Assembly (NCBI GenBank): GCA_958448165.1
Contig: CAUDCW010000004.1
Coordinates: 63,130-127,129 of the forward strand
Direction of reading: 5' to 3'
Length of the DNA: 64,000 nt
Source of the DNA: an uncultured Oscillospiraceae bacterium
GTDB lineage: Bacteria; Bacillota; Clostridia; Oscillospirales; Acutalibacteraceae
In this document: piece by piece, positions 952 through 64,000 of the stretch
Layout of the letters: each line of letters begins with the position of its first letter
Numbering within the stretch: position 1 is the first letter of the stretch
Notes under the pieces: generated by a model
Database searches by the model: none
What the model saw: only the letters and a program-made list of their open reading frames with translations
Told to the model about the DNA's origin: nothing
Position numbers and translations under genes: made by a program

Positions 952-1130
952 TTAAGGAAACACTGATTAAATCGTTTGTGCATATTGCGCTGTCAGGTTT
1001 TTCGTTAGATTGGACAAATAAACCGCAGTAATGCTGCCGCATTACGAGAATTTTTTGGTCAGGCTGACGGAAAATATGGGGGGAAGATGTGCAAACAGCT
1101 TTCATCGTGATTTATTCAGTGTTTCCTTAA
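952..1130. repeat. ~180-bp element with terminal inverted repeats (TTAAGGAAACACTGATTAAATC ... GATTTATTCAGTGTTTCCTTAA), copy 1 of 3
   Basis: Near-identical copies at 48722-48901 (same orientation) and 57383-57561 (inverted). Perfect ~22-nt terminal inverted repeat and a long imperfect internal palindrome. Lies in the divergent intergenic region, 124 bp upstream of the ABC ATPase start. Confidence 0.8.
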
Positions 1131-48721: not shown

Positions 48722-48901
48722 TTAAGGAAACACTGATTAAATCGTTTGTGCATATTGCGTCGTCAGATTTTTCGTTAGGTTGGACAAATAAAACGCAGTA
48801 ATGCTGACGCATTGCGAGGATTTTTTGGTCAGGCTGACGGAAAATATGCAAGCAAGATGTGTAAACAGCTTTTAAGCGTGATTAATTCAGTGTTTCCTTA
48901 A
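48722..48901. repeat. TIR-bounded ~180-bp element, copy 2 of 3
   Basis: ~90% identical to 952-1130 in the same orientation; lies between the leuB stop and the fhs promoter, 98 bp upstream of the fhs start. Confidence 0.8.
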
Positions 48902-54053: not shown

Positions 54054-54375
54054 AATCACATATAAGGCATATGCAGAGCGGACGAGCTTGGCTCATTTGG
54101 GTGATATTGTATTGTTCCGTTATGTTGTTCGACAATACTTTTTACAATAGCTAATCCTAAGCCGGCACCGCCGACTTTTTTAGTCATTTGCTTGTTTTCA
54201 CGGTAGAAAGGTTAAAAAATATGCGCAGAGCGTCAGGGGAGATGCCAATTCCTGTATCGGATACGATAATCAAAAGTTGGTTGTTTGCCTTTTTAGTTTT
54301 GATATGTACTTTGCCATTTTCTGTATTATATTTAATTGCATTTTGAATAAGGTTTGATACAGCGTGTTTAAGCAT
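54054..54375 (-). pseudogene. Histidine kinase C-terminal remnant (HATPase domain only, frameshifted)
   Basis: 54375-54184 encodes N/G1 boxes (NLIQNAIKYN...IIVSDTGIGISPDALRIFF) and ends in TGA; an overlapping ATG in another frame continues as MTKKVGGAGLGLAIVKSIVEQHNGTI (G2 box). No HisKA or sensor domain upstream (stop immediately 5'). Confidence 0.6.
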
Positions 54376-54489: not shown

Positions 54490-55095
54490 GTGGCGAATTA
54501 TACAGAAGAACAATGGAATGTCAAAAAAAATAAGCTTATGGAAACGTGCTTTAACGGTTTTGCCGATTTAGGACTTCACGGCACCGGTATTCGGGTGTTG
54601 GCAAAGCATTGCGGATATAACACATCTATGATCTATACATACTTTGAAAGCCTGGATGACCTTATCATACAATCTACGGAGTACTGTATGAGTAAGGTAG
54701 AAGATGATTTTATGGCGAAAGCTCCCACAGATGTTAAGGACTTATGGCGGTTTATAGACGAGATACCCTACTGGACTGCAAAAAAACACGGAAAGAAATA
54801 CCGCCTTATGTATCAGGTCTATACACACCCGAAATACAGAGAATACGGTCAGAAATTCTTTGCGGGTGTTGATAAGCGTTACACCGAATACGCAAAAAGC
54901 TTAGAGGGTAAGCTGGGAATTCCTTATCAAAAGCTGACGCCGCTGATATTCATTCTAATCAGAGCCTGCGTGCATTACGCATTATTTGAGGACGAATTTT
55001 ACCTGAAATCACAGATTACTGTGCTGAAAGAATCTATTGAACTCTTTGTTATGAAATATAACCCGAAAGCAAGGTCGGGTGCTAATACAGAATAA
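54490..55095 (+). CDS. TetR/AcrR-family transcriptional regulator
   Basis: GTGIRVLAKHCGYNTSMIYTYFES TetR_N HTH; ~200 aa all-helical. Confidence 0.75.
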   Translation: MANYTEEQWNVKKNKLMETCFNGFADLGLHGTGIRVLAKHCGYNTSMIYTYFESLDDLIIQSTEYCMSKVEDDFMAKAPTDVKDLWRFIDEIPYWTAKKHGKKYRLMYQVYTHPKYREYGQKFFAGVDKRYTEYAKSLEGKLGIPYQKLTPLIFILIRACVHYALFEDEFYLKSQITVLKESIELFVMKYNPKARSGANTE

Positions 55096-55270: not shown

Positions 55271-55579
55271 ATGCAGATCACAACTAATATCAGTAATCAG
55301 AATCTTATAATTTCAATAAGCGGCAGACTTGATACTATTTCCTCACCGCAGTTAGAGGAGGAGATTAACCGCAATTCTTTTGATGAAATTGAAACGGTTA
55401 CTCTTAATATGAGAGCGCTTGAGTATATATCAAGTACAGGACTCAGGGTTATTTTAATGCTTTATAAGAAACTGACAAGTGTCGGAGTTAAGCTCAGGCT
55501 TGTTAATGTAAATGATATGGTTATGGAAATATTCACTATGACAGGAATGGATAGTTTTCTTGAGATAGATTATGCATAA
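55271..55579 (+). CDS. STAS-domain anti-sigma-factor antagonist (SpoIIAA/RsbV-like)
   Basis: 102 aa; LEYISSTGLRVILMLYKK, with the conserved phosphorylatable Ser/Thr in the ISSTGL context. Confidence 0.8.
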   Translation: MQITTNISNQNLIISISGRLDTISSPQLEEEINRNSFDEIETVTLNMRALEYISSTGLRVILMLYKKLTSVGVKLRLVNVNDMVMEIFTMTGMDSFLEIDYA

Positions 55580-57362
55580 TATTTTTAATGAGAGTGATGT
55601 TATGAGTGAAACAGCGTTAAAACGTAATTCTGTCACAATAAACAGGAAGTATTCGGAATATTTTTTGCCTACTGTTCTTACGGCTATGGCTACAAATATT
55701 GCAATGATTGTCGATTCAATAATAGCCGGCAATATTCTCGGCAAGAATGCTTTGGCTGCAATAAACCTATTATCTCCTGTTGCTCAGCTTTATTTTTCGC
55801 TGACAATTTTGTTCGGACTCGGAGCTTCAAGTGTTATAGCCGTTGCAAAAGGAAAGAATGACAGAACGCTTGTAAACCGCATTTTTACGACAACATTTAT
55901 TGCAGTTGTGTTATTATGTATCGTGCTGATGGCAATACAGCTTCCGCTTGCAGGCGGAATATGCTCTTTGTTTACTAAGGATAAGGTTTTGAATCCGCTT
56001 CTATATCAGTATTACATACCGTATATAATCGGAACACCTCTTAATCTGATGCTGCTGTGTTCAACTTATTTTATCAGAACTGATAACAGACCGAGATTTG
56101 CTTCAAATATAATAATTGTGGCAAACATAATAAATCTGATTATGGATTATGTGTATATGGGCGTTTTCGATATGGGTATTGCAGGCTCGTCAATAGCCAC
56201 TGTTACCGGCTACGCTGTAGGATTTATTATGATGATTACACATTTCACTTCAAAAAAGAGCACGCTGCATTTTGACTTTTCAATTCTGAAAGCCCCAAAG
56301 AAATTTTTTGAAATATTCTCTGATCTGATTACGGTCGGCTTATCCGGTGCGCTGGGAACGCTTCTTATAACGGTCAAAATGCTGTTCCTTAACTGGATTA
56401 TCATGAGTACAGGCGGAAGGGACGCAATGGCTTCGTATTCAATATGCTCATCAAGTCAGATTTTTATGTCTATGTTCATAACAGGTGCGTCGCAGACAAT
56501 GATACCGATTGTCGGTGTTTGTTTGGGCGAAAAGGATTTTGATGGAATACGGTATGCATTCAGACGGGCATTTACAATTCTTGCCGTAGTAAGCGTTGTA
56601 ACTATGCTGTTTATTTTGGCTGCGCCCGAACCTGTAATAAGACTGTTTGGAATAACTGCTGAAAACGATATTTCAAATGCAGTTCCCACACTCAGGATAA
56701 ACGCTCTGTCGTTTCCTGCGCTTGCTTTTTCTTTTCTGTTTCTGTATTACTATATGGCAACTCAGAGAAAGACAATATCAACAACCATTGCAGTTCTTAA
56801 CGGAATTGTAATACTCATTCCATCGGCACTTATTTTGTCAAAGCTTTTCGGAATAACAGGTGTGTGGATTTCACTTGTGGCGGCTCAGGTCGGCACGTTG
56901 ATTGTATTATCTTTTATAATTCTCGTTATTAAAAGAAAATCAAAAGGTAAGTATGATAGCTTTTATCTTATTGAATCCAATGATAATAATGAGATTGTTT
57001 CATTGTCTTTCAAAGGCTCAAAGGAAAACGCCTCCGGTGTTTCTTTATATTTAACATCGTTTCTTACATGTCACGGTATTGAAAAAAACATTGCTAACAG
57101 GATAGCTGTAGCTGTTGAAGGAATTTCGGCAGATATCGCAGAGCGTACCGGTGAGAAGAAAAAAGCGGATATTGATATTCGTATTATGATTGACGGCGGT
57201 GACACAATAATTTCTATTCGTGATAACGGAGAGGCGTATGATATTGTTTCAAATGACAGTGTAGATAAAACACTTTCGGAAATTGAGGTAGTAAAAGCTA
57301 TTTCAAAAAGAGTTGAATATTCAAATGTACTGGGCTTTAACAGATTGGTAATTAGAATTTAA
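55572..57362 (+). CDS. MATE-family efflux transporter (12 TM) fused to a C-terminal anti-sigma-factor-kinase-like HATPase (GHKL) domain
   Basis: N-terminal ~455 aa hydrophobic with a MATE-like duplication. C-terminal ~140 aa NIANRIAVAVEGISADIAERTG...DIDIRIMIDGGDTIISIRDNGEAYD...NVLGFNRLVIRI resembles SpoIIAB/RsbW-type HATPase_c_2. Start overlaps the STAS gene stop. Confidence 0.7.
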   Translation: MHNIFNESDVMSETALKRNSVTINRKYSEYFLPTVLTAMATNIAMIVDSIIAGNILGKNALAAINLLSPVAQLYFSLTILFGLGASSVIAVAKGKNDRTLVNRIFTTTFIAVVLLCIVLMAIQLPLAGGICSLFTKDKVLNPLLYQYYIPYIIGTPLNLMLLCSTYFIRTDNRPRFASNIIIVANIINLIMDYVYMGVFDMGIAGSSIATVTGYAVGFIMMITHFTSKKSTLHFDFSILKAPKKFFEIFSDLITVGLSGALGTLLITVKMLFLNWIIMSTGGRDAMASYSICSSSQIFMSMFITGASQTMIPIVGVCLGEKDFDGIRYAFRRAFTILAVVSVVTMLFILAAPEPVIRLFGITAENDISNAVPTLRINALSFPALAFSFLFLYYYMATQRKTISTTIAVLNGIVILIPSALILSKLFGITGVWISLVAAQVGTLIVLSFIILVIKRKSKGKYDSFYLIESNDNNEIVSLSFKGSKENASGVSLYLTSFLTCHGIEKNIANRIAVAVEGISADIAERTGEKKKADIDIRIMIDGGDTIISIRDNGEAYDIVSNDSVDKTLSEIEVVKAISKRVEYSNVLGFNRLVIRI

Positions 57363-57382: not shown

Positions 57383-57561
57383 CTAAGGAAACACTGAATA
57401 AATCACGCTGAAAGCTGTTTGCACATCTTGCTTGCATATTTTCCGTCAGCCTGACCAAAAAATCCTCGTAATGCGACAGCATTACTGCGGTTTATTTGTC
57501 CAACCTGACGAAAAAATTGACGGCGCAATATGCACAAACGATTTAATCAGTGTTTCCTTAA
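57383..57561. repeat. TIR-bounded ~180-bp element, copy 3 of 3 (inverted relative to copies 1 and 2)
   Basis: Reverse complement matches 952-1130 and 48722-48901 at ~90%; ends 25 bp upstream of the NRPS start codon. Confidence 0.8.
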
Positions 57562-57585
57562 AAATAATTCTTAGGGGTGAATGGA

Positions 57586-60500
57586 ATGAATATACCCAAA
57601 AAGGCTTCTCTTTCAAAGACAGAATACGGAATTTATTTTGATTATCTGAACAATCCGAGCAGTATTGCTTACAATATTCCGTTGTTTTTAAAGCTTGACA
57701 AGGATATCGACATTACAAGACTTAAGCAGGCGGTTGAAGCGGTTATTGAAAATCATCCGTACATTAAATCACGCTTAACTGCCGATATCGACGGAGCTGT
57801 TTACAAGCTTTCGTCCGATGAACCGGCAGTTGTGGAAGTTAAAGAGCTGCACGACGCCGATTTTGACAAAAAAAGCCTTGTTTATCCTTTCGAGTTACTA
57901 AGCGAAAGACTTTATCGGTGCTGTATTATTAGTCTTGATTCATATGTGATGCTTTTCTGCGATTTTCACCATATTATCTTTGACGGCTCGTCAGCCAAAA
58001 TCTTTTTGAATGATGTTTCAAGAGCCTACAATGGTTTGCCGCTTGAACCGGAGCATTTTACAGGAAACGACGTTTCGTATGAAGAAGAGGAAAGATTAAA
58101 GACAGACGAGTTTAATTCTGCTAAGGAATATTATCGTTCGCATTTCAGCGGCATTGAGCTTGATTCTGTTATGATGAATGACAAAAACGACGGAAAACCA
58201 CTTGCAAAAGCAATTGAATACGAGTTTACATCCTTTAATGCTGACGATATAAGAAAATTCTGCCGCAAAAACGGCATAAAAACAAGCACATTCTTCTGCG
58301 GCGTTTACGGCTTTTTGCTTGCAAAATTTTCGGGAGCTGAAGAAAGCCTTTTTGCGACTATTCATAACGGACGAAACGAAAAGCTCGCAAATTCCTGCGG
58401 AATGTTTGTTAAGACATTGCCTGTTTACTGTAATTTCAGTAAGAATGAAAGTATTGTGCAATTTCTGAAGAGTCTTGATTTACAGCTTCAAAACAACAGA
58501 AAAAATGACTTGTATTCATATGCAGATATATGTTCTGATTTACAGATAAATCCACCGACCATTTTTGCCTATCAGGGTGATATATTCAGAAACATTAACT
58601 TCTGCGGAAAGGAAATATTTGCTGACAGCATAGATGTTCCCGATGCAAAGGCAAATATTTCGGCAGAGCTTTCAAGAATTAACGGAAGATTTTCAATGAG
58701 ATTTGAATACAGAGCCGATTTGTATGAGGAAAAGTCGGCAGAAAGCTTCCTGAAATCATTTGAAAAAGCGGTAACTGAATTTATCGGGAAAGAAAAAATA
58801 AATGACATTGACATAACCGACAGCGAACAGCTTGCACTTCTTGACAGCTTTAACAATACTGAAAGAGATTACGAAAAGACCGATATTGTAACGCTGTTCA
58901 GACGTCAGGCAGAACAGAACCCTGACAACACAGCAGTTGTATATCTTGACAAAAGCTATACATACAAAGAGGTTGACGAGATTTCGGAAAAAATAGGTGC
59001 ATATATTTCCTCTCTCGGAATCGGAAGAGAAGACGTTGTTTCCGTACTTATTCCGAGGTGTGAATATATGGTGCTTGCGTCATTGGGTGTTTTGAAATCG
59101 GGTGCGGCATATCAGCCGCTTGACCCGTCATATCCGCAGGAGCGCCTTGAATTTATGATGCAGGATGCATCGGCAAAGCTTCTGATAGCCGACAAAGACT
59201 TGCTTGAGCGTGTGCCGAATTACAAGGGTAAGGTGCTTATTCTTGAGGATATTCCTGCACTTCCGAGCTGTGAAAAAATCAGCACAAATCCCAATTCCGA
59301 GGATTTGTTTATTATGCTCTACACCTCAGGCTCAACAGGCACACCAAAGGGCTGTATGCTTGAACATAGAAATATAGTTTCCTTTTGCAACTGGTACAGA
59401 AATTATTACAATCTTACTTCTCAGTCAAGGGTAGCGGCTTATGCAAGCTACGGCTTTGACGCAAATATGATGGATATGTACCCTGCGCTGACAACAGGGG
59501 CAACAATACATATCATTGACGAGTCAATCCGTCTTGACCTGCTGGCGATTGACAAATACTTTAATGAAAATAAAATAACCCACAGCTTTATGACAACGCA
59601 GGTCGGCAGACAGTTTGCTGTTGAAATTGACAACAGCACCATAACCGAATTGTCTGTTGGCGGCGAAAAGCTTGTGCCGCTTGCTCCTCCGAAAAATCAT
59701 AAGATGATAAATCTTTACGGTCCTACCGAAAGCACCGTTTGTATAACAGCATTTGAGCTTGACAGGCTTTATGACAGAGTGCCGATAGGAAAGGCACTTG
59801 ACAATACAAAGCTTTATGTTGTGGATAAGCAAGGCAGGAGATTGCCGCCTTGTGTTCCCGGTGAATTGTGGGTTGCAGGTCACGGAGTGTCAAGAGGTTA
59901 CTTAAACCGCCCCGAACAGAATGAAAAAGCCTTTATCAGAAATCCGTTTACCGATGAAAAAGGCTATGAAAGAGTTTACAGAACAGGCGATATAGTGAGA
60001 TATTTGCCAGACGGCAATATCGACTTTGTCGGCAGAAACGACGGTCAGGTTAAAATCAGAGGCTTCAGAATCGAGCTTCCCGAGGTTGAGCGCATTATCC
60101 GTGAATTTGAGGGAATAAAAGACGCAACTGTTGCGGCATTTGATGAAGCAGGCGGAGGAAAATTTATTGCGGCTTACGTTGTATCTGACAGCAAGGTAGA
60201 TATTCAGAAGCTCAATGAATTTATACTTGCTAACAAACCTCCGTATATGGTTCCTGCAGTAACAATGCAGATTGACAGAATTCCTCTTAATCAGAATCAG
60301 AAGGTCAACAAGCGTGCATTGCCCAAGCCTGAAAAGAAAGCGCACAACGGCGAACCGTCATCAAAGCCTATGACCCTGCTTGAAAAGAAAATTCACTCAA
60401 TCGTTGCTGAAATTCTCGGTAACGATAATTTCAGTGTTACTGAAAATCTTTTGTTTGCAGGACTCAATTCCTTGTCGGTAATTAAGCTTGCGGTTGAACT

Positions 60501-63500
60501 CCATAAGGAATTCGGCTTTGAGGCTAATGTGAAGCAGATGATGAAGGAATGCTCTGTTATTTCTATTGAAGACCGGCTTCAGGAATACCTTATTAGCGGA
60601 GCATTGGCAAAGAGTACAGCCGAGCAAAAGCAAAAAGGCTACAAGTCTTTATATCCGCTGTCAAAGACGCAGTTGGGCGTATATTTTGACTGTATGAAAA
60701 ATCCGTACACTACGCTATATAACATTCCGTCATTTCTTAAATTCACAAAGTCTATAAACGCAGAAAAGCTTGCTGACAGTGTTAAAAAGGTTATTCTTGC
60801 GCATCCGTACATATTCACTCATCTTACAACGCAAAACGATGATGTAGAGCAGGCTTTTCCTGATAACACACAGATTGATATTCCTGTAAAGAAAATGACT
60901 GAAAATGAGCTTGAACTCTTTAAAAAAGACTTTGTCAAGCCGTTTAACTTCTCTAAAGCTCCGCTTTTCAGAATCCTTGTTGTTGAAACAGAGAGAAATA
61001 TCTATCTGTTTGCTGATTTTCATCATATTATTTTTGACGGTGCGTCTTACAACATATTTTTGAATCAGCTCAAAGCAGCATATGAGGGTGCTGAAATCAG
61101 GCCGGAGAATTATACATATTTTGACTATATTGAAGACGAAATCAAAGCTGAAAGCAGCGAAGAATACCTCAAAGCAGAAAAATTCTTTGATGATATGATG
61201 AAGAATTTTGAGTCGGCGTCCGAAATAACTCCTGATTCAGGCTCACAGGGAGATAACGGCAGGCTTGCAGAAGTAAATGTTCCCTTTGATTTAGCGCAGA
61301 TAGAAGCTTTCTGTAATAAAAACGGTGTTACACCTGCACAGCTTTTCCTTGCAGCCGCTTTCTATTCAGTGTCACGCTTTACAAATTCAAGAAACGTATT
61401 TCTCAGCACAATCAGCAACGGCAGAAGCGATATGCGTCTGACGGATTGTTTTGGTATGTTTGTTAAAACATTACCTCTCGGAATTGAGATTGAAGATATT
61501 TCGGCACTTGAATTTGTTAAAAAGAGCAAGTCTGTTTTTACGGGCGCAATAGAAAATGAAATTTATCCTTATTCAAAGATTTGTTCAAAATTCGGATTTG
61601 CACCGAATATAATGTACGAATATCAGATTGGTGTAACGGACGATTTGAAAATTGACGGCGAAGCTGTTGAAAGAAATTTCTTTGATATGAAAATCACAAA
61701 GTTTAAAACTGCAATTTATATTGAAAATTATAAAAATCAGCCCTGCATTGTTGTCCGTTACAATGAAGCGCTTTACAGTAAAGAGCTTATGCAAACGCTT
61801 GTAAAATCAATTTTCAATGCGGCTATGCACGTTATTTCTGCGCCGGATTGTAAGATAAGAAAAATTTCTCTGCTTGATGACAGTCAGCTTGATGAGCTGA
61901 ACAGCTTTTCTTTTACACGTATTGCTCCTGTTGAAACAAAGCTTTTGCATAAAATGTTTGAGAACCAGGTTGAAAAAACTCCCGACAACAATGCAATTAC
62001 TGCCTGTGACGGAACTCTTACATACAGAGAGCTTAACCGCCGTGCAAATGTTACTGCAAACGAGCTTATTGCAAGAGGCTTGAAAAAGGGTGGAAGGGTT
62101 GTGGTGCTGCTTAGCAGAACAACAAAAATTTTCTCAACCATTTTCGGTATCCTCAAAGCAGGCGGAGCATTTATTCCTACCTGCCCCGACTATCCGCAGG
62201 AAAGAATCAACAGTATTATCGAGGACAGTGAGGCTGATTTCGTAGTAACCGAGGGCGAGCTTGTCAGGATTTATGATAAAACGATAGATGTAGATTTACT
62301 TCTCGGCGGTGAAAACAGCGAAACACCCGATGTTGATGTAAGTCCCGAGGATCTGGCTTATCTAATTTACACATCAGGCTCAACAGGAAAGCCTAAGGGC
62401 GTTATGCTAAAGCATATTGGAATTGCAAACTATTTAAGCTATAATGACGCAAACCCTCAGGTAAAGTATGTTGTTGATAATTGCAAGGCTTACGGCTCTG
62501 TAACGACAGTATCATTTGATATGTCACTTAAGGAAACAGTACTTTCATTATGCAGCGGTCTGACGCTTGTCTTTGCAAGCGATGAGCAGACGGTTAACCC
62601 GATTGCTCTTGCAAAATTTCTTAAAGAAAATAACGCTGATGCGTTCAACGCAACTCCTTCAAGGCTTTTGCAGTATATGGAGCTTGATGAATTTGCAGAA
62701 GCGATGGCTGACTGTAAGGTTATTCTTTCGGGCGGTGAGAAATATCCCTATAAGCTCCTGAAGCTTCTCCGTGAAAAAACCAATGCAAAAATTCTTAATA
62801 CTTACGGTCCTACCGAAATAACGGTTTCGTCAAACTGTAAAGACCTGACAAACGCTGATGAAATTTCAGTCGGAAAGCCGCTTTTGAACTATGTTGAACA
62901 TATAGTTGACGTTGACAACAACCTTCTTCCTGTAGGAGTTGTCGGCGAGCTTCTGATTTCAGGGTGCGCAGTTGCACTTGGCTACAATAAACTTCCCGAG
63001 CAGACGAAAAAGGCGTTTGTTGAGTTTAACGGCGAAAGAACCTACCGTTCGGGCGACTATGCCAAGTGGACGAAGAACGGTGATGTTGTAATACTCGGCA
63101 GAACCGACAATCAGGTTAAGCTCAGAGGTCTGAGAATTGAGCTGGGCGAAATCGAAAAGTGCCTGACAGACATCAACGGCATTAAGAGTGCAGTTGCTTT
63201 GATAAGAAAGGTAAATAACGCTGACGCTTTATGTGCCTACTACACATCGAATATTCAGCTTGATTCGGAATTTATCAAAAATGAGCTTAAAAAATCTTTA
63301 ACTGATTATATGGTGCCTGCGGCATATGTTCAGCTTTCTGAAATGCCGCTGACCCCTAACGGCAAAATCAACACGAAGCTTTTGCCTGAGCCTCAGTCGT
63401 CCGAAAAGAAAACAGGAGTTAAACCGACAACTGCTCTTGAAAAAACTATGTGCGATATATTTGCCAAGGTTCTGGAGCTTGATAAGGTTTATGCCGATGA

Positions 63501-64000
63501 TAATTTCTTTGATATAGGCGGAAGCTCGCTGACCGTTACAAGGGTGATTATTCTTGCCAATAAAAGCGGTATAGAGATTGCGTACGGCGACGTATTTGAA
63601 AACCCGACTCCTGCCGCACTTGCAAGGCTGTGCGGAAAAGATGTGCCGAAGAACGACTTTGAAGATCTGGGTAACTATGATTACAGTAATATAGAAAATG
63701 TGTTGCTTAAAAATAATCTTGAGAGCTTCAAAAACGGAGATATGCAGGAGATAGGCGATGTACTCCTTACGGGTGCCGCAGGCTTCCTTGGAATTCATAT
63801 TCTTTATGAGCTGCTCCACAGATACAGCGGCAAGGTTTACTGCCTGCTGCGTGACAAGAATAACAATCCCGCAGAGGACAGACTTAATATGATTTTCTTC
63901 TATTATTTTGAAGAAAGTCTGAAAGAAAGCTATTCCGATAGATTGACTGTCTTGAGCGGAGATGTCACAGACAGAGAATCATTTGACAAGTTCCTTGAGT
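57586..64000 (+). CDS. Non-ribosomal peptide synthetase, two modules: C-A-T-C-A-T-R (terminal thioester reductase); 3' end beyond window
   Basis: AGGGGTGA RBS then MNIPKKASLSKTEYGIYFDY. The open frame continues to the window end. Motifs: HHIIFDGSS (C1), LYTSGSTGTPKG/YRTGD/GRNDGQVKIRGFRIEL (A1), FAGLNSLSVI (T1), HHIIFDGAS (C2), LIYTSGSTGKPKG/YRSGD/GRTDNQVKLRGLRIEL (A2), FFDIGGSSLTV (T2), VLLTGAAGFLGIHIL (R). Confidence 0.85.
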   Translation, partial: MNIPKKASLSKTEYGIYFDYLNNPSSIAYNIPLFLKLDKDIDITRLKQAVEAVIENHPYIKSRLTADIDGAVYKLSSDEPAVVEVKELHDADFDKKSLVYPFELLSERLYRCCIISLDSYVMLFCDFHHIIFDGSSAKIFLNDVSRAYNGLPLEPEHFTGNDVSYEEEERLKTDEFNSAKEYYRSHFSGIELDSVMMNDKNDGKPLAKAIEYEFTSFNADDIRKFCRKNGIKTSTFFCGVYGFLLAKFSGAEESLFATIHNGRNEKLANSCGMFVKTLPVYCNFSKNESIVQFLKSLDLQLQNNRKNDLYSYADICSDLQINPPTIFAYQGDIFRNINFCGKEIFADSIDVPDAKANISAELSRINGRFSMRFEYRADLYEEKSAESFLKSFEKAVTEFIGKEKINDIDITDSEQLALLDSFNNTERDYEKTDIVTLFRRQAEQNPDNTAVVYLDKSYTYKEVDEISEKIGAYISSLGIGREDVVSVLIPRCEYMVLASLGVLKSGAAYQPLDPSYPQERLEFMMQDASAKLLIADKDLLERVPNYKGKVLILEDIPALPSCEKISTNPNSEDLFIMLYTSGSTGTPKGCMLEHRNIVSFCNWYRNYYNLTSQSRVAAYASYGFDANMMDMYPALTTGATIHIIDESIRLDLLAIDKYFNENKITHSFMTTQVGRQFAVEIDNSTITELSVGGEKLVPLAPPKNHKMINLYGPTESTVCITAFELDRLYDRVPIGKALDNTKLYVVDKQGRRLPPCVPGELWVAGHGVSRGYLNRPEQNEKAFIRNPFTDEKGYERVYRTGDIVRYLPDGNIDFVGRNDGQVKIRGFRIELPEVERIIREFEGIKDATVAAFDEAGGGKFIAAYVVSDSKVDIQKLNEFILANKPPYMVPAVTMQIDRIPLNQNQKVNKRALPKPEKKAHNGEPSSKPMTLLEKKIHSIVAEILGNDNFSVTENLLFAGLNSLSVIKLAVELHKEFGFEANVKQMMKECSVISIEDRLQEYLISGALAKSTAEQKQKGYKSLYPLSKTQLGVYFDCMKNPYTTLYNIPSFLKFTKSINAEKLADSVKKVILAHPYIFTHLTTQNDDVEQAFPDNTQIDIPVKKMTENELELFKKDFVKPFNFSKAPLFRILVVETERNIYLFADFHHIIFDGASYNIFLNQLKAAYEGAEIRPENYTYFDYIEDEIKAESSEEYLKAEKFFDDMMKNFESASEITPDSGSQGDNGRLAEVNVPFDLAQIEAFCNKNGVTPAQLFLAAAFYSVSRFTNSRNVFLSTISNGRSDMRLTDCFGMFVKTLPLGIEIEDISALEFVKKSKSVFTGAIENEIYPYSKICSKFGFAPNIMYEYQIGVTDDLKIDGEAVERNFFDMKITKFKTAIYIENYKNQPCIVVRYNEALYSKELMQTLVKSIFNAAMHVISAPDCKIRKISLLDDSQLDELNSFSFTRIAPVETKLLHKMFENQVEKTPDNNAITACDGTLTYRELNRRANVTANELIARGLKKGGRVVVLLSRTTKIFSTIFGILKAGGAFIPTCPDYPQERINSIIEDSEADFVVTEGELVRIYDKTIDVDLLLGGENSETPDVDVSPEDLAYLIYTSGSTGKPKGVMLKHIGIANYLSYNDANPQVKYVVDNCKAYGSVTTVSFDMSLKETVLSLCSGLTLVFASDEQTVNPIALAKFLKENNADAFNATPSRLLQYMELDEFAEAMADCKVILSGGEKYPYKLLKLLREKTNAKILNTYGPTEITVSSNCKDLTNADEISVGKPLLNYVEHIVDVDNNLLPVGVVGELLISGCAVALGYNKLPEQTKKAFVEFNGERTYRSGDYAKWTKNGDVVILGRTDNQVKLRGLRIELGEIEKCLTDINGIKSAVALIRKVNNADALCAYYTSNIQLDSEFIKNELKKSLTDYMVPAAYVQLSEMPLTPNGKINTKLLPEPQSSEKKTGVKPTTALEKTMCDIFAKVLELDKVYADDNFFDIGGSSLTVTRVIILANKSGIEIAYGDVFENPTPAALARLCGKDVPKNDFEDLGNYDYSNIENVLLKNNLESFKNGDMQEIGDVLLTGAAGFLGIHILYELLHRYSGKVYCLLRDKNNNPAEDRLNMIFFYYFEESLKESYSDRLTVLSGDVTDRESFDKFLE

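Follow-up and report, generated by a model that had tools for sequence, protein, structure and literature searches.

A dimodular nonribosomal peptide synthetase predicted to make an N-acyl dipeptide aldehyde, and its adjoining exporter gene, in an uncultured Oscillospiraceae bacterium

Gut commensals reportedly carry a family of nonribosomal peptide synthetases (NRPSs) for dipeptide aldehydes and pyrazinones, said to have been described by Guo et al. in 2017 (Cell 168:517), with BGC0001686 and its product N-octanoyl-Met-Phe-H as an example; the rup cluster and ruminopeptin were reportedly described by Schneider and Balskus in 2018 (Tetrahedron 74:3215). The gene treated here appears from its architecture and the gut origin of its relatives to be a well-conserved further member of this known gut dipeptide-aldehyde family. 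It lies at the 3' end of a 64,000-nucleotide stretch of DNA, the window, from an uncultured Oscillospiraceae bacterium (GenBank assembly GCA_958448165.1, contig CAUDCW010000004.1, positions 63,130 to 127,129 of the forward strand). It is fairly likely to encode an NRPS that makes an N-acyl hydrophobic-acidic dipeptide aldehyde, exported by a switch-linked MATE pump.

According to passages of PMC12327764 and PMC8518294, ruminopeptin is an N-acyl-Leu-Glu aldehyde of Ruminococcus bromii, and the former adds that it was discovered by mining an NRPS cluster of that species. Of the described systems, rup rather than the Lachnospiraceae clusters is probably the nearest published case. Likened by description, rup and the window locus share a Ruminococcus/Acutalibacteraceae host and an NRPS with reductive release, and the Leu-Glu product matches the hydrophobic and Lys239 codes of the two adenylation (A) domains, A1 and A2, of the window enzyme. 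By the same comparison the rup enzyme may equal the orthologue group of the window enzyme or one of its 50-60% paralogues; the window genome differs in having an insertion like a miniature inverted-repeat transposable element (MITE) in the spacer between the MATE gene and the NRPS gene. No R. bromii-named homologue of the NRPS, MATE or housekeeping proteins was found among the relatives, and none in the 77 related loci.

The likeness to the family of Guo et al., as parts of PMC8518294, PMC8210680 and PMC12327764 present it, lies in small NRPSs that end in a reductase (R) domain, are confined to gut-associated anaerobes and yield protease inhibitors; an N-terminal condensation (C) domain there goes with N-acylated, non-cyclising aldehydes. 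The characterised clusters, compared by description, are mostly from Lachnospiraceae or Clostridium and have a hydrophobic or aromatic C-terminal residue, whereas the terminal A domain in the window has a Lys239 (acidic-substrate) code. The aureusimine synthetase AusA/PznA of Staphylococcus aureus (NF047350) is likewise dimodular with a terminal aldehyde-forming R domain and gave the best NCBIfam match. It has the order A-T-C-A-T-R (T, carrier domain), whereas the window protein starts with a 408-residue Condensation domain, and the free dipeptide aldehyde of AusA cyclises to a pyrazinone. Among solved structures the R domain is nearest to Mru_0351 (6VTJ; PMC8024701), which comes from a comparable gut or rumen habitat but is a far larger archaeal protein (PCP-R construct, residues 3701-4187) of unknown product. 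The exporter genes recall the RsbV-RsbW-RsbU and SpoIIAA-SpoIIAB-SpoIIE systems in the STAS phospho-serine, in the SpoIIAB/RsbW fold and in a PP2C phosphatase with an RsbW-like kinase in 41 of the 77 loci. They differ in that the RsbW fold is fused to the MATE C-terminus and lacks the G2 box and, in the window lineage, the N-box Asn, and in that a transporter in a biosynthetic cluster, with no associated sigma factor, is the apparent output.

The + strand frame that opens at ATG 57586 runs for 2,138 codons to the window end with zero stops, as an earlier note on this DNA had read it, and it is missing from the list of open reading frames (ORFs) solely for want of an in-window stop. An in-frame stop stands upstream at 57565. 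AGGGGTG precedes the ATG, whose position agrees with the start codon of orthologues. Six domains, C-A-T-C-A-T, each exceeded the hidden Markov model (HMM) cutoff in that order, and the R domain that completes the C-A-T-C-A-T-R order of the earlier note is begun in the window (NAD_binding_4, aa 2061-2129, profile positions 1-72 of 258, E = 1e-12) and completed by the 2,422-aa orthologues. The Pfam matches are far above chance, with whole-protein E-values of 4e-102 for the two Condensation and 1e-147 for the two AMP-binding domains. All eleven motifs quoted in that note are present, each at most 15 nt from where it had placed them; seven of them start at 57967 (HHIIFDGSS), 59317 (LYTSGSTGTPKG), 60454 (FAGLNSLSVI), 61021 (HHIIFDGAS), 62362 (LIYTSGSTGKPKG), 63505 (FFDIGGSSLTV) and 63760 (VLLTGAAGFLGIHIL). 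HHxxxDG is intact in both C domains, as are the A3, A7 and A8 cores and the A10 lysine (Lys517) in both A domains; the carrier serine is kept in both T domains, and a Rossmann NAD(P)H motif opens the R domain. A2 is homologous to the GrsA-PheA structure 1AMU (5.5e-81), and the best Protein Data Bank (PDB) matches of C2 are the C domain of LgrA and TycC6. The frame is a dimodular NRPS of the order C1-A1-T1-C2-A2-T2-R. Coordinates are given in Table 1.

Table 1. Features of the NRPS locus (window coordinates unless a locus is named).
Feature	Position	Strand	Basis or remark
NRPS gene, 5' 88% (2,138 of ~2,422 codons)	57586..64000	+	Open frame; orthologues 2,422-2,428 aa
C1, N-terminal condensation domain (aa 7-414)	57604..58827	+	Pfam Condensation 4.5e-46; HHIIFDG at aa 128
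A1, adenylation domain (aa 438-906)	58897..60303	+	Pfam AMP-binding (438-773) and AMP-binding_C (833-906)
T1, carrier domain (aa 935-992)	60388..60561	+	Pfam PP-binding 2.4e-09; Ser in GLNSL
C2, condensation domain (aa 1022-1437)	60649..61896	+	Pfam Condensation; HHIIFDG at aa 1146
A2, adenylation domain (aa ~1458-1930)	61957..63375	+	Pfam AMP-binding (~1458-1800) 9.8e-72
T2, carrier domain (aa 1955-2015)	63448..63630	+	Pfam PP-binding; Ser in GGSSL
R domain, N-terminal ~80 residues	63760..64000	+	Pfam NAD_binding_4; Rossmann motif TGAAGFLG
MATE exporter with C-terminal SpoIIAB/RsbW-fold (GHKL) domain, predicted fold	55572..57362	+	Pfam MatE 9e-37
STAS (SpoIIAA/RsbV-like) protein, 102 aa	55271..55579	+	Pfam STAS 1.2e-21
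MITE-like palindromic repeat, 175 bp	57385..57559		Between MATE stop and NRPS ribosome-binding site
TetR-family regulator	54490..55095	+	Pfam TetR_N
C45/Ntn hydrolase (in orthologous loci)	L015 17829-18986; L001 16545-17696; L002 16224-17381; L006 20273-21394		0-7 kb downstream of NRPS

The cluster is cut by the window edge, as had been noted before; orthologues are 2,422 aa long, so about 855 nt of the NRPS gene lie outside. The orthologue in L006 (L numbers denote loci, P numbers related proteins), which is 95% identical, carries the NAD_binding_4 domain in full (residues 2061-2300) and terminates behind it, and the R segment inside the window is 94% identical to that of the close cluster representative P0001. 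The R domain of L006 matches 6VTJ (PCP-R of Mru_0351, Methanobrevibacter ruminantium) at 7e-69 over 384 residues, the closest solved relative, followed by aldehyde-forming AusA-R (4F6C) at 5e-40; alcohol-forming MxaA-R gave 3e-17 and Mycobacterium tuberculosis (Mtb) Nrp-R 5e-9. The full domain and the structural relatives found in orthologues bear out the reading of the terminal domain as a thioester reductase of the short-chain dehydrogenase/reductase type, neither a thioesterase nor an epimerase, and, judged from these orthologues, it appears to be redox-competent. Its catalytic triad could be followed in part: the motifs VSTMSV (Ser/Thr) and YTLSK (YxxxK) were found in L006, and the window holds just the Rossmann N-terminus. 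As a separate observation, the R domain (L006 16100-17266) is far closer to archaeal 6VTJ than to bacterial AusA-R, a similarity that hints at NRPS transfer between gut bacteria and rumen methanogens.

The Stachelhaus codes of both A domains, which the earlier note had left unread, were extracted from a 295-sequence alignment of family A domains; a three-sequence MAFFT alignment had misplaced gaps and was superseded. The alignment was anchored on a GrsA-PheA segment; the anchor is self-consistent, since the segment reproduces DAWTIAAICK and the A10 lysine at 517. The code of A2 is unambiguously DMKNLGTVSK; it is unchanged in all of the 90-95% orthologues and in every 66-93% relative, and recurs in the terminal modules of many family members. 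That of A1 is DAM(F)SGLVCK, where position 278 falls in an alignment gap and Phe is placed by motif anchoring alone. Lys239 is the determinant that separates known Glu codes from Gln codes. The substrate of A2 is probably acidic, namely Glu, by analogy with such codes, because Lys239 is present; apart from the opposite charge at position 239, the pocket resembles an Orn code. The pocket lining of A1 predicts a hydrophobic, Leu-like substrate.

The role of C1 decides whether the product is N-capped. C1 and C2 are 29% identical, and the best PDB matches of C1 are elongation-type C domains (bacitracin BacC, microcystin McyB, tyrocidine TycC6). Its description in the earlier note as a starter C domain stands in so far as it is N-terminal, has no preceding carrier and keeps HHxxxDG, but C2 is at least as near to a lipoinitiation C domain, and N-capping is therefore worded here as a proposal. 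The best support for N-acylation is comparative and comes from relatives with an acyl-loading module in cis, which would indicate the role of C1. P0015-P0017 (58-60% identical, same A2 code, 2,960-3,000 aa) have an extra N-terminal A-T ahead of the C1 equivalent, and an acyl-type A-T loading module also stands at the N-terminus of P0034, P0040 and P0047. The loading A domains (codes such as IAL-ITC-GK) would be of the carboxylic-acid type, because they are without the alpha-amino-binding Asp235. The window enzyme has no such module, and its acyl donor would therefore have to arrive in trans; further NRPS or A-T genes were found neither in 57 kb upstream nor, in orthologues, in 9-10 kb downstream. 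N-acylation blocks pyrazinone formation because it removes the free amine, and passages of PMC8210680, citing Guo 2017, likewise state that the N-acyl tail stabilises gut dipeptide aldehydes against cyclisation. The earlier prediction of an N-capped aldehyde or pyrazinone thus splits into alternatives, since an acylated aldehyde without a free amine cannot cyclise. Three-module family versions (~3,430-3,490 aa; P0006, P0008, P0012 and similar) also exist. The versions with loading in cis would give acyl-dipeptide aldehydes, and the three-module versions tripeptide aldehydes.

The exporter gene upstream is the second main element of the locus. Its product starts at 55572, or possibly at ATG 55602 as in 586-aa orthologues, and is about 140 residues longer than usual for MATE proteins; the extra domain lies at about nt 56937-57359. 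The MATE gene adjoins the NRPS gene in every orthologous locus extending that far. Taken alone, the extension of the window protein matched HATPase_c_2 weakly (E = 0.003). Homologues 55-60% identical carry PF13581, and the NRPS-adjacent MATE proteins of L044 (Lachnospiraceae), L029 (Muribaculaceae), L032 (Bacteroidales) and L018 (a Ruminococcus paralogue) clear the cutoff of 27.4 bits with 40-59 bits, and all four have a STAS gene close by. In the PDB, the first 16 fold matches to an AlphaFold2 model of the window domain (pLDDT 84.5, pTM 0.78) are SpoIIAB, RsbW and UsfX (probability 1.00, query TM 0.53-0.69), and the C-terminal extension is, as modelled, a domain of the SpoIIAB/RsbW fold. The best PDB matches of the STAS protein are SpoIIAA and RsbV, from the same complexes as the GHKL matches, and its phospho-acceptor Ser55 (ISSTGL) is invariant in all 56 family STAS proteins. 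The STAS and MATE genes are predicted to be co-transcribed.

Both genes accompany the NRPS family widely. In the 77 related loci, drawn from GTDB with one genome per species, MATE is present in 57, STAS in 52 and both in 46, many loci being broken off; STAS and MATE being present in most loci, they belong to the family core. STAS and MATE-GHKL genes were found with the NRPS across Bacillota and Bacteroidota (L018, L029, L032, L044, L080, L084, L089, L091, L093). Looked at in reverse, all five MATE-GHKL homologues whose surroundings were inspected, from gut metagenomes, adjoin an R-terminated NRPS; four (P0399, P0334, P0392, P0403) had been chosen by MATE similarity alone and the fifth neighbours P0029, and one of the five loci has a phosphopantetheinyl transferase (PPTase) gene directly 3' of the NRPS. 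P0029 itself (57% identical, same A2 code) has a 773-aa QueT-SpoIIE-HATPase_c_2 protein encoded upstream of STAS. Homologues of the SpoIIE phosphatase and kinase occur in 41 of the 77 loci, including the orthologous L002, L017 and L027, where they lie 3' of the NRPS with a second STAS gene; the stand-alone kinase of L002 has intact N, G1 and G2 boxes. In L080 (5525-7846), L002 (12441-15303) and L091 (149-2389) a membrane-anchored SpoIIE (PP2C) domain either forms one protein with a canonical RsbW-like kinase or precedes it. It is possible, and is put forward tentatively, that the family core consists of a synthetase and a partner-switching circuit with the pump as its output, in which the kinase-dead MATE domain is the docking site of a phosphorylatable STAS protein, whose phosphorylation state would be set in many loci by the membrane-anchored SpoIIE phosphatase and RsbW kinase. 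Literature searches found no description of a partner-switching module with a transporter output, or of its link to these NRPS clusters.

For the whole locus the following course is proposed. A1 would load a hydrophobic (Leu-like) amino acid onto T1, and A2 an acidic one, most likely Glu, onto T2. C1, with no upstream carrier, would acylate the amino acid on T1, with an acyl-CoA or acyl-ACP as donor in trans, and C2 would form the peptide bond. The R domain would then reduce the thioester by two electrons from NAD(P)H to release an N-acyl dipeptide aldehyde, a protease inhibitor of the ruminopeptin type; we infer an N-acyl hydrophobic-Glu aldehyde. The MATE pump would export it, and the adjacent STAS protein would bind the cytoplasmic SpoIIAB-like domain of the pump, so that export would probably be gated by a partner-switching (phosphorylation) signal.

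A number of observations weigh against this account. The surfactin C construct 8F7F (461 aa), which we take to be a lipoinitiation C domain, scores 5e-6 with C1 and 4e-10 with C2, and clustering of 260 family C domains failed to separate acyl-accepting from peptide-forming ones. The A1 code has an ambiguity at position 278, the assignment of Lys239 to Glu leans on analogy with known Glu codes, and the searchable literature yielded no published substrate assignment for either code. The catalytic part of the R domain and all downstream sequence fall outside the window, and no Sfp-type PPTase was detected within it with an Sfp query sequence. On the side of the switch, the MATE-fused GHKL domain of the window lineage has AVEGISADIAERT in place of EExxxNxxxHG, with loss of the N-box Asn, and the GxG G2 box was found in none of the MATE-fused domains compared; such a domain is probably a non-catalytic docking module. 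No SpoIIE or kinase gene is present in window nt 1-57500, nor within 9 kb downstream in L006 and L015, which share the layout with TetR upstream. With the N-box Asn lost, G2 absent and no SpoIIE or kinase gene, the signalling input may therefore have been lost in the window lineage. Finally, a hairpin repeat now lies between MATE and NRPS and could affect expression.

Other outcomes were considered for the same enzyme. Were C1 silent or structural only, the free dipeptide aldehyde would cyclise to a dihydropyrazinone and oxidise to a pyrazinone, as with the aureusimines and many gut clusters. This is unlikely: HHIIFDG is intact, C1 is 86-91% identical to that of the nearest orthologues, and relatives carry the acyl-type loading module ahead of the equivalent C domain. 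AusA is the best NCBIfam match and the R domain is related to AusA-R, but the NF047350 equivalog profile gave 992 bits where 2500 are required, and matched aa 374-2129 only, beginning past C1. C1 is not of an obvious lipoinitiation subtype, and gut dipeptide aldehydes have mostly been isolated as pyrazinones (PMC12327764); against this, the published Ruminococcus product is N-acylated, according to passages of PMC8518294. A four-electron reduction by R, giving an N-acyl dipeptide alcohol, is somewhat less probable still. Aldehyde- and alcohol-forming R domains share fold and triad, the determinant of the extent of reduction is unknown (PMC8024701) and the closest solved domain, that of Mru_0351, is likewise of unknown product, yet the R domain is much nearer to AusA-R than to MxaA-R or Mtb Nrp-R, and in the gut family the characterised enzymes give aldehydes (PMC12327764, PMC8518294).

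C1 might instead take a peptidyl or aminoacyl donor from a separate carrier or NRPS subunit, which would make the product longer than an acyl-dipeptide. Its resemblance to ordinary elongation C domains, the three-module relatives and a second, paralogous NRPS in the same genomes (L019 and L025 alongside L006 and L007) would fit this, but that paralogue has the full C-A-T-C-A-T-R order, with an R domain, MATE and STAS of its own, and a candidate A-T or NRPS gene is absent from the 57 kb upstream and, in orthologues, from the 9-10 kb downstream; a longer product is accordingly given little chance. It is very improbable that the gene is decaying or unexpressed here. Such a reading would draw on a MITE-like insertion peculiar to this genome, with its very stable hairpin, and on the SpoIIE and kinase genes missing from the upstream region, whereas the 2,138 codons are free of stops, no catalytic motif is damaged, the insertion has spared the ribosome-binding site and start codon, and the hairpin has no following T-run on the + strand. 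Release of an N-acyl dipeptide aldehyde remains the favoured reading.

The host is an Acutalibacteraceae 'Ruminococcus': the 90% clusters of the window's FTHFS, MATE and a 912-aa protein include proteins labelled 'unclassified Ruminococcus' and 'Acutalibacteraceae bacterium'. Relatives in the protein database reach 93% identity at a length of 2,422 aa. At least 12 GTDB loci are 90-95% identical, all from metagenome-assembled genomes (MAGs) labelled Ruminococcus sp., Acutalibacteraceae, Oscillospiraceae or Clostridia and derived from human gut, rumen and other animal guts. All 77 related loci are of gut, rumen or faecal origin (human, mouse, rabbit, horse and ruminant genomes or MAGs), which is consistent with the family assignment of the earlier note. 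The abundant 2,996-aa NRPS of the P0085 cluster (4,887 members; L084) was rejected as an orthologue; it has three amino-acid modules in the order A-T-C-A-T-C-A-T-R and no Lys239 code. Identity to the window NRPS is uneven along the protein, a mosaic at the level of domains. P0003 and P0004 are 85-96% identical from A1 onward and 55-60% in C1; P0045 and P0046 are 76-82% identical over C1-A1 and 21-41% in the second module; P0058 is 92% identical in A1, 59% in C1 and 25-42% in the remainder. Taken singly, P0003 has 60% identity in C1 and 89-96% in the other parts, and P0046 has 76-82% over C1-A1 and 27-40% in the other parts. Break points at about aa 430 and aa 925 divide C1, A1 and the T1-C2-A2-T2-R block, which differ in their nearest relative, and paralogous potential donors co-reside in the same genomes.

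Terminal inverted repeats of 13 bp bound the MITE-like repeat, whose predicted hairpin has a folding energy of -63.8 kcal/mol (z = -8.8). Three copies, 91-94% identical, are found in the window (954-1128, 48724-48899 and 57385-57559, the third inverted), and others elsewhere in L001, L007, L013 and L027; two independent assemblies, L078 and L079, break inside the repeat. It is missing at the orthologous site in L001, L006, L007 and L015, a comparison by which it appears not to be part of the ancestral cluster, and no clear target-site duplication was seen. A structured RNA or riboswitch in the 223-nt spacer between MATE and NRPS was rejected, because the sequence belongs to an inverted-repeat element that is present in several copies and lacking in orthologues; Rfam gave only sub-threshold matches to plant miRNA precursors. 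A promoter scan showed no enrichment over shuffles.

The gene order in the window is TetR, STAS, MATE, NRPS. TetR occurs in 7 of the 77 loci, upstream of STAS in L006, L014 and L015 and downstream beside the C45 hydrolase in L002, L007 and L017. A C45/Ntn hydrolase (choloylglycine-hydrolase or acyl-CoA:6-APA acyltransferase-like, 373-386 aa) was observed in 9 of the 77 loci, close orthologues only, and some loci pair it with the TetR that precedes STAS in the window. The hydrolase could cleave an amide in tailoring or immunity, or its position may reflect no more than synteny; as cluster members, TetR and the hydrolase are unsupported past the close orthologues. The G+C content is 0.45-0.51 at 47-52 kb, a housekeeping region with FTHFS, TsaE, TsaB and RpiB, and drops to 0.36-0.39 beyond about 52 kb, across the regulator, STAS, MATE and the early NRPS (0.37-0.44 in the NRPS), which is consistent with an acquired island. 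At about 54056-54375 on the - strand, between an HTH/Zn-ribbon gene and TetR, other assemblies call ORFs of 43 and 63 aa with weak HATPase_c matches, which may be a histidine-kinase remnant. They were rejected as remnants of the cluster's RsbW-like kinase, no similarity being found.

The NRPS family is already known for cell-permeable protease inhibitors in the gut, and this member is present in at least 12 species-level genomes. The acidic code of A2 would point toward Glu-specific (GluC/V8-type) proteases as targets, not cathepsins. C1, A1 and the T1-to-R block, recombining as separate units between co-resident paralogues, would be a natural guide to permissive junctions for NRPS engineering. 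What is new and least expected is a putative exporter-linked partner-switching module conserved across the NRPS family. An exporter wired to a STAS/anti-sigma-type switch could explain why such clusters are silent in culture and their products hard to isolate. If the proposed circuit is true, a membrane-sensed signal would switch the export, or the export-coupled production, of a reactive protease-inhibiting aldehyde.

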